Source of the DNA: Candidatus Aenigmatarchaeota archaeon
Lineage (GTDB): Archaea; Aenigmatarchaeota; Aenigmatarchaeia; CG10238-14; SCSR01
Assembly (NCBI GenBank): GCA_039090665.1
Contig: JAWCSL010000003.1
Location: 1-63,499 of the forward strand
DNA length: 63,499 bases
Direction of reading: 5' to 3'
The position numbers were made by a program, and so were the translations under genes. The notes beneath the pieces were generated by a model that saw nothing but the letters and a program-made list of their open reading frames with translations, was not told the DNA's origin and ran no database searches. Positions 721 to 45,857 of this stretch are shown piece after piece. How positions within the stretch are numbered: position 1 is the stretch's first letter; every line of letters begins with the position of its first letter.

Positions 721-978
721 GGCGTGCTGGTTGTAGCCCGTCTTTTGTTCCAGGGTAGCATTTGTCTAAGCGTCTCAAACTTGCACCTCATAGGGGGCAC
801 CGATCCGTTTCATCTTTGACAACCTCAACTCAATTTCAATCATCGTTATCGAGGTTGCAAAGTGTCGTTTCTGATATCGGTGCTACCTTCTCAGGTAAGC
901 TTACGCTCCCCTCAAAGGTGGACGGAACTTCCTCAGCCTTTCTTTGATGAAAGGCCGAAGCTACCCAACCAGCTCGCC
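721..978 (-). ncRNA. rnpB: RNase P RNA (compact, 258 nt)
   Basis: Minus strand has GAGGAAGUUCCGUCCAC (CR-I), CAGAAAC (CR-II), UGAAACG (CR-III), UGCAAG, GCUUAGACAAAUG (CR-IV), AACAAAAGACGGGCUAC (CR-V); ends pair as P1 (GGCGAGCUGGUUG / CAACCAGCACGCC). Confidence 0.93.
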
Positions 979-3868: not shown

Positions 3869-3954
3869 TGCAGGGGGTGGGATTCGAACCCACGTAGGCA
3901 CTAAGCCACGAGGTCCTAAGCCTCGCGCGATTGACCAGACTACGCGACCCCTGC
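3869..3954 (-). tRNA. tRNA-Leu(UAG)
   Basis: Cloverleaf, stem CGAGG/CCTCG, loop CTTAGGA, long variable arm, TTCGAAT T-loop. Confidence 0.95.
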
Positions 3955-4025
3955 AATATTTGAGATAAGTTTTCTAGAAATTAAATCTTTGATGTTTTTT
4001 TATTCTAAAAGCGAAAAGCCTATTT

Positions 4026-5018: not shown

Positions 5019-5638
5019 GAAAGAAAGAACTAGAACTCATTTTAGAAAAACTCAAGCCCTTGGAAAAACCGAAGATAAGTTTAGAACAATATACGATACC
5101 AGCAGATTTGGCAGCAGAAATTTTGAATATTGCTTTTTTGTCGGGTGATATTGAGAATAAAAAGGTTGCTGATTTCGGATGTGGAAGCGGAAGACTTGCA
5201 ATAGGAGCAGCTTTGCTTGGTGCCAAAGAAGTGGTGGGAATAGATATTGATGAAGATGCGGTAAAGCAAGCGAAAGAAAATTTGAGAATCGCTGAAGGAT
5301 TAGTTGGAAGAAAGCTGAAAGTGAAATTCTTCTGTCATGACATAACAAAATGGAGAGGAAAATATGATACCGTGATACAAAACCCACCTTTTGGGATAAA
5401 AGGAATTTACAATGATAGAATATTTCTGGAAAAAGCATTGAATTCTGCTAAAAGAATTTATTCTCTACATAGGAACGGAAGAAAAGAAACACGAAATTTC
5501 ATAATCAAATTTGTTTCTGATAGAGGAGGTAAAATTGAAAATGTAATCAAGTTTAAATTTCTCTTACCCCATCTCTTTAAGTTTCATAGGAAACCAAAGC
5601 TGAGATTTGATATTGATCTTTATATAATAGGTCATTAA
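5015..5638 (+). CDS. METTL5-like N6-adenine RNA methyltransferase
   Basis: LEQYTIP, DFGCGSG, NPPFG motifs. Confidence 0.9.
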   Translation: MRKKELELILEKLKPLEKPKISLEQYTIPADLAAEILNIAFLSGDIENKKVADFGCGSGRLAIGAALLGAKEVVGIDIDEDAVKQAKENLRIAEGLVGRKLKVKFFCHDITKWRGKYDTVIQNPPFGIKGIYNDRIFLEKALNSAKRIYSLHRNGRKETRNFIIKFVSDRGGKIENVIKFKFLLPHLFKFHRKPKLRFDIDLYIIGH

Positions 5639-5813
5639 ATTCTCTATAAATTTTACATCCACCATAAACTCTTAGCCCAAAAAAAATGCGGTGAAGAAGA
5701 TAAGTACATTTTTGGTTACATGTTGTATAGAAATAAGGACAAATACCAAAAATTTTGTTCATTTTTTCCTTTGCCAATTCACACACCTATGGATTTTTTT
5801 GTAGATAAGCTTG

Positions 5814-5888
5814 TGCCCCCACTGGGATTTGAACCCAGGTTTCAAGCCCGAGAAGCTCGTGTCCTTGACCGGGCTAGACGATGGGGGC
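5814..5888 (-). tRNA. tRNA-Glu(CUC)
   Basis: Acceptor GCCCCCA/TGGGGGC, stem CGAGC/GCTTG, loop TTCTCGG. Confidence 0.9.
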
Positions 5889-6247: not shown

Positions 6248-6333
6248 TGGGCCTGGAGGGATTCGAACCCTCAACCCGAGGTTTCTTCAAAAAACCGAAG
6301 CCTCGTCGGATATCCAAGTTTCCACACAGGCCC
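6248..6333 (-). tRNA. tRNA-Arg(UCG) with 12-nt intron at 37/38
   Basis: Stem CGAGG/CCTCG; CT-TCG-G, intron TTTTTTGAAGAA; BHB central helix CTTC/GAAG. Confidence 0.9.
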
Positions 6334-7932: not shown

Positions 7933-8318
7933 CTAAACAAAATTTTAACAAACTCTGTGTAAATTTTTTATTAAAATTTTATTTAAAAGCATTTTTTATG
8001 TTTAAAATATATGATGAAAATTGTATGATAGTGAATTTAAATCGTGCAAACTATTTTTTTCTTTATATATCTTTTAAATCAACATCAGTTATATCACAAA
8101 AATTTTCTAGTTTCTCTTTTTATTTTTGTCAAATAAATCTTCCAAAGCACAACGTGCAATCAAAAATTTTAAAAAATCATGATTTCTTACACTTGAACCT
8201 AACTTAACAAAAATTTTCCTCAAGTTGAGACAGTCTTAATGGATAACTTCTATACAAAATTTTAATTATTCTTGTGCTGTAATCAATTTCTTTCACAATA
8301 GGAAACAAAAAAATTAAG

Positions 8319-8404
8319 CGCCCTCGGTGGGATTCGAACCCACGACCTACCGGTTAACAGCTTCACCCTATTCGTCGGGTGCTCTACCACTGAGCTACGA
8401 GGGC
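8319..8404 (-). tRNA. tRNA-Asn(GUU) with 14-nt non-canonical intron at 30/31
   Basis: Loop CTGTTAA, G73; removing ACGAATAGGGTGAA (8362-8375) restores a 72-nt cloverleaf; BHB central helix CACC/GGTG with 3-nt bulges. Confidence 0.9.
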
Positions 8405-8416
8405 ATTTTTCAATAA

Positions 8417-9706
8417 TCATGGATAAACCCTATTCACTAATCTTGGAAATGCAGTAGCATCTCTTATGTGTTTGAGTTTACAAACCCACATCACCATTCT
8501 TTCAATTCCTAAACCAAAGCCTGCATGCTGAACAGAACCAAATTTTCTTAAATCCAAATACCATTTGTATGCTGAAGGATCTAGTTTTTCTTCTTCTATT
8601 CTCTTCATCAATTCTTCAAAATTTTCAATTCTTTCTCCAGAACCAATTATCTCACCATAGCCTTCTGGAGCAAGCATATCAACACTTAAAGTCACATTAG
8701 GATTGGAAGGGTCTGGTTTATGATAAAATGCTTTTATTCCTTTTGGAAAGTGTGTGACGAAGAAAGGTTTATCGAACTGTAAAGCTAAGACTCTTTCTTC
8801 ATCTGCTCCAAGATCATCCCCATATTCTATTTTTACTCCCTTCTCTTGTAAGAGCCTTATCGCTTCTTCGTATCTTATCCTTGGAAAAGGGGGTTTCATC
8901 CTCAATAACTCTTCAGGATCTCTTCCCAACTCTCTCAATTCTAAGCTACATTCTTTAGCGACTTTTTGTAAAATGAAACTCACAAGCTCTTCTTCAACTT
9001 TCATTAATTCTTCAATGCCACAAAACGGCATTTCAGCTTCTAAATGCCAGAATTCTGTTAAATGCCTTCTTGTTCTTGATTTTTCAGCTCTAAAAGAAGG
9101 AGCTATTGTATAGCACTTACCAAAACCAAAAATCATAGCTTCCCCGTAAAGTTGCCAAGATTGTGTCAGATAAGCTTTTGAATCAAAATATTTTACTTCA
9201 AACAAAGTTGAGCCACCTTCACAAGCAGTTCCAACTATTATCGGAACTTGAACTTCAAGGAAACCATTATCCTTGAACCATTCTCTAGCCGCTTCCAAGA
9301 TTTTGGCTCTAATTCTGAGGATTCGATTCATTTTTTTGCTTCTGATCCAAAAGTGTCTGTTATCCAAAAGAAATTCGGGACCATGGTATTTTTTTCCAAT
9401 CGGAAAACCTTCCATAGCTTTGCTTAACACATTAACTTTTTTTACTGCGATTTCATACCCATAAGGTGCTCTTTCATCTTTTCTTACTGTACCAAAAATT
9501 TCTACTGCCGACTCTAGGGGAAGTCTTTCTATTTCATCAAAAGTTTTTTCATCAACTTGATCTTTTTTCAAAGTACATTGAATGAAACCTGTACCATCTC
9601 TTATTATCAAGAATAAAATTCCACCTGAGCTACGCTTGTTGTGAAGCCAACCTTTTATTTCAACTTCTCCTTCTTCTTTACCTTCTAATATTTTTGAAAT
9701 TTCCAT
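8417..9706 (-). CDS. asnS: Asparaginyl-tRNA synthetase
   Basis: OB-fold N-terminus (GWLHNKRSSG), YLTQSWQLY, RTRRHLTEFWHLEAE, HAGFGLGIER. Confidence 0.94.
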   Translation of the reverse strand: MEISKILEGKEEGEVEIKGWLHNKRSSGGILFLIIRDGTGFIQCTLKKDQVDEKTFDEIERLPLESAVEIFGTVRKDERAPYGYEIAVKKVNVLSKAMEGFPIGKKYHGPEFLLDNRHFWIRSKKMNRILRIRAKILEAAREWFKDNGFLEVQVPIIVGTACEGGSTLFEVKYFDSKAYLTQSWQLYGEAMIFGFGKCYTIAPSFRAEKSRTRRHLTEFWHLEAEMPFCGIEELMKVEEELVSFILQKVAKECSLELRELGRDPEELLRMKPPFPRIRYEEAIRLLQEKGVKIEYGDDLGADEERVLALQFDKPFFVTHFPKGIKAFYHKPDPSNPNVTLSVDMLAPEGYGEIIGSGERIENFEELMKRIEEEKLDPSAYKWYLDLRKFGSVQHAGFGLGIERMVMWVCKLKHIRDATAFPRLVNRVYP

Positions 9707-9744
9707 ACAATCACCTAATTTTGTTTTTTAAAAAAATAAAATAA

Positions 9745-9818
9745 CTGCGGCGGGGAGATTCGAACTCCCATCATCCGGGTAACAGCCAGATATGCTAGCC
9801 TCTTAGCACCACGCCGCT
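9745..9818 (-). tRNA. Atypical tRNA or tRNA-like element: GUU anticodon, Asp-like body, A1-A72 mismatch
   Basis: AGCGGCG TG GTGC TAAGAGGCTA GCAT A TCTGG CTGTTAC CCGGA TGAT GGGAG TTCGAAT CTCCC CGCCGCA G; all four stems form; C38 and 4-nt variable loop. Confidence 0.8.
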
Positions 9819-9898
9819 GTAGCTTAATCCAGGTAGAGAAGCAATTTTCAAGAATTTTTTTGAATCTAATCGAGGCTAGCCAAATCTCAGGATAAGAA

Positions 9899-9931
9899 TC
9901 AACAACTATTGTTTTGGCAATCGCCCCTCAT
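9899..9931 (-). CDS. Putative leader peptide MRGDCQNNSC
   Basis: ATG at 9931 preceded by GGTGAAGGA (SD-like); tandem AAC AAT codons; TGA at 9899-9901. Confidence 0.4.
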   Translation of the reverse strand: MRGDCQNNSC

Positions 9932-9963
9932 TCCTTCACCTTGATTATTTATTTAATTCACAC

Positions 9964-9971
9964 TATTTAAA
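9964..9971 (-). promoter_or_regulatory. Candidate TATA box (TTTAAATA) with purine-rich BRE-like upstream sequence
   Basis: Minus strand AGGAAAATATTTAAATAG, ~25 nt upstream of the GGTGA SD of the micro-ORF. Confidence 0.5.
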
Positions 9972-10064
9972 TATTTTCCTTAATTGGCTATCAGATCAGA
10001 AAATTCTTTTTATTCAAATGCAGACAAATGGGGTGTGATTCTTGGATTTGTATTTTGATCCAAA

Positions 10065-11060
10065 TCAAGGCGAGGCTATTCCAGGAACTTTCGGAAAAGG
10101 AACAGCTTCCCATATTTTTTCCAACCCACAAATCCATCTTGTTAATCTTTCAACACCAATACCAAAACCAGAAGAAGGTGGTATGCCAATTTTCAGCATG
10201 TTTAAATACCACTTGTATTTTTTTGGATCTTCTCCAGTTTTTTTCATCCTTTCAACAACTTTTTTGTATTCATGCTCCCTCTCACCACCAGAAATAACTT
10301 CACCAAAACCTTCTGGTAAAATCAAGTCAAAATCTCTTAGTTTTTTCGTTTTGGGATCTTCAAGATAATAAAAACCTCTTGCTTTGAGGGGATAATCTGT
10401 TATCCATAAAGGTTCAGAACTCTGAGCAGACAAAGCTTCTTCAGCTTCCCATGGAATTTCTTCTTCATCACCCATTTTGAATCCAAGTTTTCTTACAATT
10501 TCAACTACTTGCTCATGAGTAAGTCTTTTGAAAGGAGTTTTTGGAACTTTTAATTTTCTGCCAAAAATTTCCAATTCTTTGAAACATTTCTTTTTCACAT
10601 CTTTTACCAAATAAACAATCATTTTTTCTGCCAAATGCATGGAATCTTCATAAGTAGCATAAGCCTCTTCTAGGTCAATTTGTCTGAATTCTGCTAAATG
10701 TCTTCCAGTTTTTGCAGATTTTTTTGGTTCAATTCTTATGTTTGGTGAAAGTGAAAAGATTTTATGGACAGAAGAGATTGCCATTTGTTTATACAAAATC
10801 ATGCTGCTCATGAGCTTGAACTTCTGGCCGTAAAAATCTATCGTAACTTGTTTAGCTCCTCTAATTCCAGGATCTGTAGCAGGACCTATTATTGGAGCAA
10901 GAATTTCTATGAAGCCTTGTTTCCTCAAAAATTCTCTTATAGCAGATAAAATTTCGTCTTGAATTTTAAGCATAGCAACCATTTTTGGATGTTTTAAGGC
11001 TATGTGTCTGTATTTGATTGATTGGATTGAGTTCAAGTTGCTAATTTCCATTATTATCAC
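10065..11060 (-). CDS. Archaeal asparagine synthetase A (AsnRS paralogue lacking the anticodon-binding domain)
   Basis: Class IIb catalytic core only; SMILYKQMAI, SPNIRIE, GRHLAEF, GEVISGGEREHEY, GFGIGVERL, PFPKVPG; no OB-fold. Confidence 0.9.
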   Translation of the reverse strand: MIIMEISNLNSIQSIKYRHIALKHPKMVAMLKIQDEILSAIREFLRKQGFIEILAPIIGPATDPGIRGAKQVTIDFYGQKFKLMSSMILYKQMAISSVHKIFSLSPNIRIEPKKSAKTGRHLAEFRQIDLEEAYATYEDSMHLAEKMIVYLVKDVKKKCFKELEIFGRKLKVPKTPFKRLTHEQVVEIVRKLGFKMGDEEEIPWEAEEALSAQSSEPLWITDYPLKARGFYYLEDPKTKKLRDFDLILPEGFGEVISGGEREHEYKKVVERMKKTGEDPKKYKWYLNMLKIGIPPSSGFGIGVERLTRWICGLEKIWEAVPFPKVPGIASP

Positions 11061-11095: not shown

Positions 11096-11374
11096 ATGCA
11101 ACCTAGCTTAAAAAAAGTTAAGGCTTTTATTCTTGCTTCTTTTACTTACACACAAAAAGGTAAGTTTTTGGACCAAAAAGAAATTTTAGCACAAATAGCA
11201 AAATTCCCAGAAGTTGAAGAAGCTCACATCATAAGTGGTAATTGGGATATTTTAATAAAAGTTGCTATGAATAGTGTGGATGACATAGGAAAGTTTGTGG
11301 TTGATAAATTAAGAAAAGTTAAAGGAATAGAGAAAACAATAACTTGCATGGTTTTCCAAACTGCAAAAGAGTAA
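11096..11374 (+). CDS. Stand-alone Lrp/AsnC ligand-binding (RAM) domain
   Basis: PEVEEAHIISGNWDILIKV...VVDKLRKVKGIEKTIT; no N-terminal HTH. Confidence 0.85.
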   Translation: MQPSLKKVKAFILASFTYTQKGKFLDQKEILAQIAKFPEVEEAHIISGNWDILIKVAMNSVDDIGKFVVDKLRKVKGIEKTITCMVFQTAKE

Positions 11375-11748: not shown

Positions 11749-11844
11749 GCCTAGGTGGCCGAATCTGGTTAAGGCGCCAGTCTGCTAAAGTTGTAGAGAG
11801 CTGGTGGTCGTAAGACCGTGTGGGTTCAAATCCCACCCTAGGCG
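11749..11844 (+). tRNA. tRNA-Ser(GCU) with 11-nt intron at 37/38
   Basis: Stem CCAGT/GCTGG; CT-GCT-A, intron AAGTTGTAGAG; BHB helix CTGC/GTAG; long variable arm. Confidence 0.9.
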
Positions 11845-12655: not shown

Positions 12656-12742
12656 AGCCCCAGGCGGGATTTGCACCCGCGACCTCATGCTTACCACGCT
12701 TGCGCAATTCTTATGCGCTCTAGCTAGCTGAGCTACTGGGGC
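12656..12742 (-). tRNA. tRNA-Thr(GGU) with 13-nt intron at 29/30 and atypical elbow
   Basis: GCCCCAG/CTGGGGC, U73; removing AAGAATTGCGCAA (12700-12712) restores CATGC/GCATG; loop GTGGTAA; T-loop TGCAAAT. Confidence 0.8.
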
Positions 12743-45745: not shown

Positions 45746-45857
45746 TGGGCCTACCGGGATTTGAACCCGGGACCAACGGGTTTCTTTCATCTTTTTAATC
45801 AAAGCTTTTAGCTTTAAGCTAAAAGCCCGCTGCTCTACCATGCTGAGCTATAGGCCC
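45746..45857 (-). tRNA. tRNA-Lys(UUU) with 38-nt intron at 37/38
   Basis: Stem GCGGG/CCCGT; intron 45782-45819; BHB helix CTTT/AAAG. Confidence 0.9.

Follow-up and report, generated by a model that had tools for sequence, protein, structure and literature searches.

Why does a gene for asparaginyl-tRNA synthetase (AsnRS) in a small-genomed archaeon lie between two tRNA genes with the same GUU anticodon, one of them carrying a body that is not that of tRNA-Asn? The question is raised by a 63,499-nt stretch of a Candidatus Aenigmatarchaeota archaeon (contig JAWCSL010000003.1, assembly GCA_039090665.1), here called the window, in which asnS is followed by a canonical tRNA-Asn(GUU) gene and preceded by a second tRNA(GUU) gene, hereafter the odd tRNA (9745..9818, minus strand). 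Host placement is based on the relatives of its AsnRS, which point to Candidatus Aenigmatarchaeota (DPANN) known from hot-spring metagenome-assembled genomes (MAGs). Archaea usually make do with a minimal, canonical set of tRNAs, and DPANN genomes of 0.6-0.9 Mb, the size of Aenigmatarchaeota genomes of this kind (PMC8407114), should shed redundant genes; a second tRNA(GUU) has nonetheless been kept down to 60% AsnRS identity, with a body of the wrong class and a first acceptor pair that is never paired.

The first-pass annotation of the locus had described a complete tRNA(GUU) cloverleaf 38 nt upstream of asnS on the same strand, and this description holds (9818..9745, minus strand). Read 5' to 3' from 9818 to 9745, the odd tRNA is AGCGGCG UG GUGC UAAGAGGCUA GCAU A UCUGG CUGUUAC CCGGA UGAU GGGAG UUCGAAU CUCCC CGCCGCA G, with A1 at 9818, the anticodon GUU at 9785-9783, A72 at 9746 and the discriminator G73 at 9745. 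All of the peculiarities listed in that annotation are present: an A1•A72 mismatch leaves six acceptor pairs instead of the seven of the Rfam tRNA model (RF00005), the core consists of U8 and G9, a D-stem of G10•U25, U11-A24, G12-C23 and C13-G22 and an extra pyrimidine ahead of A14, the anticodon loop CUGUUAC has C38, and the variable loop UGAU is 4 nt long. The nucleotides required for tertiary interactions (U8, G18 G19, U33, U54 U55 C56, A58 and G53-C61) are all present and are invariant across the family alignments described below, the one extra pyrimidine 5' of A14 being the sole departure from the standard tertiary core in the family. ARAGORN calls the gene as tRNA-Asn(gtt) at 9744-9819, and RF00005 scores it at 39.0 bits, above the gathering score of 29 and lowest among the 12 tRNAs of the window; the match is local (model positions 3-68) and leaves out pairs 1:72 and 2:71. 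In its minimum-free-energy fold (-30.5 kcal/mol, z = -2.17), the sequence adopts the cloverleaf and leaves A1 unpaired; 7 of 200 shuffles are as stable, and it is because of the comparative data, not of the single-sequence fold, that the structure stands beyond chance.

These comparative data come from 13 copies of the odd tRNA at 12 loci, found in GTDB genomes and JGI metagenomes and belonging to one Aenigmatarchaeota clade with AsnRS 60-93% identical. Three GTDB genomes (AsnRS 86-93% identical) carry the odd tRNA at the same site. A pattern scan of JGI metagenomes, in which the Asp-type D-arm, the GUU anticodon, the 4-nt variable loop and the T-loop were fixed and the acceptor stem was left unconstrained, returned eight contigs, every one of which encodes an AsnRS, 60-77% identical to that of the window. 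The 12 distinct sequences are paired throughout at 20 of 20 stem pairs besides 1:72 (95.5% of all cells are paired), and 12 pairs show compensatory changes on both sides. The covariation score of the family is 0.506, compared to 0.172 for shuffles (0 of 500 reach 0.506) and 0.06-0.11 for slid registers. A family covariance model (R1) gives members 71-99 bits (98.6 bits for the window copy) and everything else at most 49 bits, while the Rfam tRNA model gives members 33.9-54.4 bits. The conservation upstream of asnS that had been proposed as a check is thus found in the relatives, together with covariation.

A decaying pseudogene, an integration scar or an assembly error would account for the lowest Rfam score among the window tRNAs (39 bits), for a mismatch at the top of the acceptor stem and for redundancy with the canonical tRNA-Asn, but we give this explanation next to no credence. 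The odd tRNA and its flanks are identical in JGI 3300022544, GCA_039091825.1 and GCA_044343605.1 (the first a JGI metagenome contig, the other two NCBI MAGs of different samples), and this identity across three independent assemblies excludes the assembly or consensus error that had initially been considered as its source. Pairing outside 1:72 is 100%, with compensatory changes in the 12 pairs, the mismatch is invariant down to 60% AsnRS identity, a true relic of the gene (in locus L012, see below) looks different, and no member was found in IMG/VR. The pseudogene or artifact reading is thereby refuted by the comparative data, above all by covariation. The odd tRNA is a genuine, selectively maintained tRNA gene; ARAGORN, Rfam, the cloverleaf fold, the three assemblies, the 12-sequence covariation and the family model agree on a tRNA(GUU) at 9745..9818, whose body, as set out below, is of the Asp type.

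Invariant within the family are A1•A72 (12/12 distinct sequences), GUU and G73 (13/13 copies) and the entire D-stem (G10•U25, U11-A24, G12-C23 and C13-G22). The gene had been called malformed in the first-pass annotation, a term that does not suit a mismatch that is invariant and under selection. Two other features had been reported as C38 and an extra U in the D-loop; both are correct for the window copy and vary in the family, where base 38 is C in 9 of 12 sequences and A in three members, and the extra base is either C or U. The variable loop is 4 nt long in 11 of 12 sequences and 5 nt long only in the second copy of locus L041. In that locus, tandem copies stand ahead of asnS (L041:1445-1517 and 1563-1661), the second of which has a D-loop intron of ~24 nt and U37 replacing A37, besides its 5-nt variable loop.

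In a simple neighbor-joining tree of AsnRS, all loci with the odd tRNA fall into one clade, sister to Bathyarchaeia enzymes. The gene is present in most sub-branches of this clade and absent from L004/L005, L051/L053 and L012, the latter being sister to L003. L012 has kept a decayed relic of ~40 nt (~3925-3970), with recognizable ends and conserved flanks, which shows what the odd tRNA looks like without selection; the same locus also lacks the RAM and asnA-like genes introduced below. The simplest history would be that the odd tRNA was ancestral in the AsnRS clade and was then lost at least three times, indicating a gene that is useful, not essential. Within the collections searched, the family is confined to one Aenigmatarchaeota clade. 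No member was found when IMG/VR was searched for copies, and a viral or mobile origin was rejected on this ground.

To which class does the body belong? The resident canonical tRNA-Asn has G1-C72, G10-C25, C11-G24, A38, a 5-nt variable loop AGGUC and G73, and of the class features compared, it has only C32 and G73 in common with the odd tRNA. It is 52% identical to the family consensus, and the family model scores it at 39.0 bits, beneath tRNA-Asp, tRNA-Thr, three tRNA-Arg, tRNA-Val and others. AsnRS identity in the systems studied consists of the GUU anticodon and G73 (PMC9976931, PMC13433404); the odd tRNA has both, and it lacks the 5-nt loop and any close relatedness to the resident tRNA-Asn. 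In archaea, a 4-nt variable loop is conserved in tRNA-Asp and tRNA-Gln and a 5-nt loop in tRNA-Asn (PMC2330236), while C38 and G73 are Asp determinants and C36 is a strong one (PMC9976931). Of the tRNA-Asp features, the odd tRNA has C38, G73, the 4-nt loop and G10•U25, and only the anticodon GUC is missing (U36 in 13/13 copies).

A resident tRNA-Asp(GUC) was found at L039:28-137. Two introns interrupt it, of ~20 nt in the D-loop and of 15 nt between positions 29 and 30, and its spliced form is a perfect cloverleaf that ARAGORN then calls tRNA-Asp; unspliced, it is missed by ARAGORN and scores 27.3 bits, under the Rfam gathering score. As in the odd tRNA, it has G10•U25, U11-A24, C32/C38, a 4-nt variable loop (AGAC) and G73, whereas its sequence is otherwise different (C9, D-stem GUCU/GGAU, G1-C72). 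In a typical archaeal tRNA-Asp, that of L036 from IMG/VR, the D-arm and variable loop match the odd tRNA nearly base for base (UGGUGU...UCAUA, UGAC), and this tRNA is the best non-member match of the family model, with 49.0 bits and only narrowly ahead of a tRNA-Thr (47.9 bits). L036 (935-5793; IMGVR_UViG_3300021446_000176) is an island of 22 archaeal-type tRNA genes on a 134-kb contig classed as viral, and its tRNAs served as a reference panel. BLAST of the odd tRNA against annotated phage tRNAs returned nothing beyond short matches to Gly, Lys and Arg tRNAs of bacterial type and was uninformative on isotype. The Asp-like body proposed at the outset is thus upheld by class features that are common to the resident and the L036 tRNA-Asp and differ from the resident tRNA-Asn, and these sequence features assign the body to the Asp class and not to that of Asn.

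Most economically, the odd tRNA would descend from a tRNA-Asp-type gene, perhaps of foreign origin, through an old C36-to-U shift of the anticodon. The alternative of a recent duplicate of the resident tRNA-Asp was rejected, as the L039 tRNA-Asp matches in class features and not in sequence. Neither is the odd tRNA the sole tRNA-Asp in L039, which has its own tRNA-Asp(GUC), or the sole tRNA-Asn in the window clade, which has a canonical one; it may be the sole tRNA-Asn in L037-L044, loci within which no canonical tRNA-Asn lies. A gene dosage effect for an Asn-rich proteome was likewise rejected, since Asn accounts for only 3.56% of codons in the window open reading frames (ORFs).

The closest known concept is the alloacceptor anticodon shift, or tRNA remolding/recruitment (PMC3923123, PMC4783518), in which the body of one class, here Asp, also comes with the anticodon of another, here Asn. 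The Asp and Asn anticodons are only one base apart (C36 to U36) and the anticodon is a major identity element for both enzymes, so that a single change can switch identity. Described cases are, however, mostly from mitochondria or eukaryotic multigene families, where the shifted tRNA usually replaces a lost gene or is a recent copy. The odd tRNA, in contrast, coexists with the canonical tRNA-Asn, is old and is no copy of the resident tRNA-Asp, and it has in addition the invariant A1•A72, an encoded CCA and a fixed place before asnS.

The acceptor end sets the family apart from other tRNAs of these loci. The 5' flank is conserved, with a pyrimidine at -1 (C in the window) and A at -2 (9819..9820, minus strand) in 12/12 aligned family sequences, while -3 to -5 are variable. 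The -1:73 column could form a pair, U•G in 8 sequences and C-G in 4. At the 3' end, six distinct sequences encode CCA after G73 and three more encode CC (9/12), compared to none of ~32 other tRNA genes in the Aenigmatarchaeota loci examined; the CCA has been lost in the window copy and in L003. A transcription start exactly at A1, as in a leaderless-type transcript, was unsupported, the upstream A/T-rich motif lying at a variable distance (~-26 to -55).

Starting from the existence, fold, conservation, covariation, class features, genomic linkage and losses of the odd tRNA, all of which are directly established, we favor, with slightly less than even confidence, the explanation that it is an anticodon-shifted Asp-type accessory tRNA that is charged by AsnRS and has a specialized acceptor end. 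An ancestral GUC-to-GUU shift in a tRNA-Asp-type gene would have combined an Asp body with an Asn anticodon. The product is a complete, L-shaped tRNA, presumably released as a small RNA of its own because an oligo-T tract follows it. The neighboring AsnRS would charge it with asparagine, given that GUU and G73 are invariant and that in three lineages C38 has given way to A38, the base found in Asn-type tRNAs. With its GUU anticodon, an Asp-type body would be at risk of capture by aspartyl-tRNA synthetase (AspRS), and A1•A72 would insulate it from this enzyme, lower its affinity for elongation factor 1A (EF1A) and tune or reduce its use in elongation. A mismatch at 1:72 is a hallmark of bacterial initiator tRNA and weakens binding to elongation factor Tu (EF-Tu). 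In E. coli AspRS, G1-C72 helps to position the acceptor end (PMC9976931), and effects of the tRNA body on EF-Tu discrimination of Asp and Asn tRNAs have been described (PMC1904265). The odd tRNA is probably not the main decoder, because a canonical tRNA-Asn is present, Asn is rare and the gene was lost several times. The open A1•A72, the conserved -2/-1 flank and the encoded CCA would thus mark a specialized accessory tRNA-Asn, and what it does in the cell is probably linked to asnS and the asnA-like gene, the genes that it precedes.

Several points weigh against this explanation. A 1:72 mismatch is unusual in an elongator tRNA, and a pure decoding role would leave its invariance unexplained. 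The strict position 5' of an ORF with the AsnRS fold, L039 included, would fit a role in cis at least as well. Archaeal AspRS is often non-discriminating and could charge the odd tRNA with Asp. Finally, the family model separates tRNA-Asp from tRNA-Thr by a narrow difference, as noted above, and the resident tRNA-Asp is not close in sequence as a donor of the body.

If AspRS did charge the odd tRNA, a dual identity would result: a relaxed AspRS would recognize the Asp-type body (G10•U25, C38, G73, G34 and U35) and Asp would be delivered to Asn codons, as programmed Asn-to-Asp mistranslation, comparable to that of bacterial tRNAProX with proline. We consider this improbable, although four of five conserved Asp determinants are kept and C36 alone is replaced (PMC9976931), and G10•U25 is invariant even though a change of U25 to C would be structurally neutral. 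Yeast tRNA-Asn lacking the t6A37 modification is aspartylated (PMC9976931), and there is a precedent for hybrid-identity tRNAs encoded beside a synthetase gene (PMC10404621). However, C36, the missing base, is one of the strong Asp determinants (PMC9976931), and the open 1:72 should disfavor both AspRS, given the role of G1-C72 in E. coli (PMC9976931), and EF1A. A38 has replaced C38 in three lineages, a change that would argue against selection for AspRS recognition. The adjacent synthetase, AsnRS, moreover matches the anticodon and not the body, the reverse of what is seen in the precedent, tRNAProX.

This precedent, the bacterial tRNAProX next to ProRSx (PMC10404621), is the closest known system. 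It resembles the odd tRNA in its hybrid of body and anticodon, its typical place beside a synthetase gene, its patchy, lineage-restricted distribution and its accessory character. It differs in that its neighboring synthetase matches the body and mistranslation has been demonstrated (PMC10404621), while the neighbor of the odd tRNA matches the anticodon. The odd tRNA is also archaeal and has the 1:72 mismatch, and no mistranslation is predicted if AsnRS charges it.

The genomic position of the odd tRNA is an argument for a different explanation. In 12/12 loci it lies on the same strand as, and directly 5' of, an ORF with the AsnRS fold, at a distance of 13-62 nt (usually 31-41 nt). The downstream gene is asnS in 11 loci and an asnA-like gene in one (L039), with the second copy intervening in L041, whereas the gene on the other side varies (asnA-like, FtsZ, Lrp and others). 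The odd tRNA might thus be a regulatory tRNA acting in cis or trans, which A1•A72 bars from elongation and which serves as a binding target for AsnRS by the logic of the thrS operator: where it is contained in an asnS or asnA-like transcript, free AsnRS bound to it would hinder translation initiation or processing, and uncharged tRNA-Asn would compete the enzyme away. We judge this explanation unlikely, though not negligibly so. The same holds for its more specific form, a dedicated non-decoding tRNA, shielded from EF1A by A1•A72, that reports Asn charging or free AsnRS to the genes it precedes, in cis upon read-through or co-transcription and possibly in trans, which we regard as doubtful. 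Besides the constant position next to a changing neighbor, the invariant mismatch and the encoded CC(A) are in line with regulation, and so is the dispensability of the odd tRNA in several lineages, as regulators often are dispensable. For the RNase Z of some systems, CCA acts as an anti-determinant.

The spacer between the odd tRNA and asnS bears on this explanation from both sides. The asnS gene (8417..9706, minus strand) encodes an AsnRS of 429 aa (NCBIfam NF003037, 514 bits, and TIGR00457, 453 bits, both above cut-off; Pfam PF01336 and PF00152) that comprises an OB fold for anticodon binding and a class II core. Its ATG is at 9706, 38 nt from G73, and its stop codon is at 8417-8419. The 38-nt spacer UUAUUUUAUUUUUUUAAAAAACAAAAUUAGGUGAUUGU (9707..9744, minus strand) contains a T4+T7 tract, which may also be read as a T/A-rich, TATA-like element centered ~25 nt before the ATG (~24-27 nt across the loci), and a Shine-Dalgarno (SD)-like GGUGAU at -11 to -6; in the family, the spacer has the form (CCA)UUUAUUUUU and then a stretch rich in A. 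Conservation of the SD-like GGUGAU ahead of asnS would call for a longer, transcribed leader, a point in favor of regulation. However, a T-rich, terminator-type tract (T4-T7) follows the odd tRNA in 10 of 11 asnS-linked loci, as it does other tRNAs in these loci, and a comparable T/A-rich element is found at the same distance (~25 nt) before the ATG in L012, L004 and L051, which have no odd tRNA. The T-tract, assigned like the promoters by eye, could be a terminator of the archaeal type and/or the TATA box of a leaderless or short-leader asnS mRNA, and the presence of the TATA-like element in relatives lacking the tRNA suggests that asnS has an independent promoter. A gap of 27 nt lies between G73 and the SD-like motif of the window, and the two are adjacent only in L039.

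L039 is the one locus with good evidence for co-transcription, the partner of the odd tRNA there being the asnA-like gene. The start codon of that gene follows G73 after no more than 13-16 nt, which include an SD-like GUGAU, and a divergent, full-length Lrp/AsnC gene stands upstream of the two. Co-transcription, possibly under control of this Lrp/AsnC protein, is likely, because a T-tract is lacking and the gap is too short to hold a promoter. This arrangement is nevertheless a single case: the Lrp-asnA layout recurs without the odd tRNA in three loci whose asnA-like genes are 64-75% identical to that of L039, which points to a single event. The placement of the odd tRNA in the asnS leader, as first proposed, is thus only tentative for asnS, before which the T-tract and the TATA-like element stand.

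Two further observations weigh against regulation. The odd tRNA retains every tertiary-interaction nucleotide of a working tRNA, whereas to our knowledge known operators of aminoacyl-tRNA synthetase genes mimic only part of a tRNA. No pairing between the tRNA region and the SD-like motif is conserved; the leader-to-SD pairing seen in a 161-nt fold of the window is absent from L001-L003 and was treated as chance. The E. coli thrS operator mimics the anticodon arm only and overlaps the ribosome-binding site, and T-box leaders bind tRNA and are not tRNAs themselves. The odd tRNA resembles the thrS operator and other leader mimics in being a tRNA-shaped RNA with the cognate anticodon, on the same strand upstream of the cognate synthetase gene. 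It differs in being a complete tRNA, with CCA encoded in the family, that in most loci stands 31-41 nt ahead of the ATG and is set off from it by a T-tract, and in the window it neither abuts nor overlaps the ribosome-binding site. A T-box leader, with its specifier loop, T-box sequence and terminator/antiterminator switch, is unsupported, since no T-box or other cis-regulatory Rfam model matched 8250-10070 at E <= 1. We know of no tRNA-mimic control of synthetase genes in archaea.

Tied to the asnA-like gene is a further explanation, first raised as a tRNA-linked route to asparagine: a non-discriminating AspRS would make Asp-tRNA(GUU), and GatCAB or the asnA-like enzyme would then amidate it, the odd tRNA being the scaffold. 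The archaeal asparagine synthetase A-like gene of the window (10065..11060, minus strand; 331 aa; NCBIfam NF005052, 438 bits versus a cut-off of 368) lies 246 nt upstream of the odd tRNA on the same strand, and its product corresponds to the AsnRS catalytic core without the anticodon-binding domain. The proximity of the odd tRNA to such a paralogue in the window clade and in L039 is in favor of this route, and some organisms with an AsnRS make Asn by transamidation alone (PMC2330236). We nevertheless consider it very unlikely. Archaeal GatCAB rejects tRNAs with 4-nt variable loops (PMC2330236, PMC2811023), and AsnA-bearing genomes reportedly rely on AsnRS instead of GatCAB (PMC2330236). An asnA-like gene is present in the four closest loci and missing nearby in 6 of the 12 family loci, while L051 and L053 have both asnA-like and asnS genes and no odd tRNA; a strict coupling of the odd tRNA with the asnA-like gene was therefore rejected, each occurring at loci without the other. 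The absence of an anticodon-binding domain likewise speaks against action of the asnA-like enzyme on a tRNA. The Pyrococcus enzyme of this type acts on free aspartate. The scanned ORFs of the window and ~10 kb on either side of it yielded no tRNA-Asp, aspS, gatCAB or Thg1-like gene.

The mismatch itself has two kinds of parallel. The first is with tRNAs kept out of elongation, namely, bacterial initiator tRNA (C1xA72) and the staphylococcal non-proteinogenic tRNA-Gly. Like these, the odd tRNA is a normal tRNA apart from its conserved unpaired 1:72, and it is accessory to a canonical tRNA whose anticodon it shares. Unlike initiator tRNA, it has U11-A24, its anticodon stem lacks three successive G-C pairs, and no partner enzyme (formylase or Fem-type transferase) is evident nearby. 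The second parallel is mitochondrial 5' tRNA editing, in which Thg1-like proteins repair acceptor mismatches (PMC4284800) and in which the mismatch at acceptor position 1 is also encoded in the genome. Archaea encode Thg1-like 3'-5' polymerases with unknown natural substrates, and according to the same review, annotated archaeal tRNAs encode no 5' mismatches (PMC4284800). The encoded 5' mismatch of the odd tRNA may be repaired by such an archaeal polymerase.

In the literature searched, we found no description of a family of Asp-bodied tRNA(GUU). What sets this family apart from the remolding and tRNAProX cases are its archaeal host, its long coexistence with a canonical isoacceptor, the invariant A•A at 1:72, the -2/-1 flank, the encoded CCA and the synthetase neighbor that matches the anticodon. 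If AsnRS charges the odd tRNA, as we favor, it would represent a clean natural Asp-to-Asn identity switch in archaea, revealing which compensations are needed; if it has no part in decoding, archaea would have a regulatory or special-purpose tRNA of a new kind. Should it report charging or free AsnRS, it would be the first tRNA-based control of a synthetase or amino acid biosynthesis gene described in archaea, and should its mismatch be repaired, the first natural substrate for archaeal Thg1-like enzymes. Either way, the statement that archaeal tRNAs encode no 5' acceptor mismatches (PMC4284800) needs correcting, and the odd tRNA is a concrete candidate substrate for studying archaeal Thg1-like enzymes, RNase P site choice and EF1A discrimination.

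Beyond the asnA-like gene, a stand-alone AsnC/Lrp ligand-binding (RAM) domain protein of 92 aa is encoded at 11096..11374 on the plus strand (Pfam PF01037, 8e-16). This RAM-only gene is divergent from the asnA-like gene, a layout reminiscent of E. coli asnC-asnA, and in L039, L051, L053 and L059-L061 its position is taken by a full-length Lrp/AsnC gene with helix-turn-helix and RAM domains. The closest relatives of asnS and the asnA-like gene outside their own clade are in Bathyarchaeia (62-68% identity), other Aenigmatarchaeota (L033, L015) being more distant (47-52%), which suggests horizontal transfer of both genes. Transfer from TACK archaea into Aenigmatarchaeota is documented (PMC8407114). 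Between the asnA-like stop codon and the odd tRNA, a conserved intergenic element (AAGGUGAAGGAAUGAGGGGCGAUUGCCAAAACAAUAG...CUGAGAUUUGGCUAGCC; ~9830-9950, minus strand) recurs in L012 and partly in L004, both without the odd tRNA; its reading as a C/D-box small RNA was dropped, since the box spacing is too short and no Rfam model matched.

The canonical tRNA-Asn(GUU) (8319..8404, minus strand; Rfam, 56.5 bits) starts 12 nt after the asnS stop codon. The first-pass annotation had correctly given its place and its normal body and had overlooked an intron of 14-15 nt at a non-canonical site after position 30 (~8361-8375), detected by ARAGORN in intron mode as i(30,15). Orthologues lie downstream of asnS in L001, L012, L004, L005 and L051. 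They are intron-free in L001 and L012 and have D-loop introns in L004 and L005, and the orthologue of L003 apparently has several introns. In L002 (5289-5917), the D-arm of the canonical tRNA-Asn is split by ~540 nt bearing an ORF of 164 aa (5345-5839), which has no significant Pfam match and, by eye, a PD-(D/E)xK-like motif; it may be an intron-borne endonuclease or an inserted element.

Further intron-bearing tRNAs of the window are Arg(UCG) (6248-6333, minus strand), Ser(GCU) (11749-11844, plus strand), Thr(GGU) (12656-12742, minus strand) and Lys(UUU) (45746-45857, minus strand), the last with a 39-nt intron, and ARAGORN without intron handling mislabels or misses several of the intron-bearing genes. 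The window also encodes an archaeal RNase P RNA (722-977, minus strand; Rfam, 133 bits), and because of its presence, tRNA 5' leaders are presumably processed normally in this organism.

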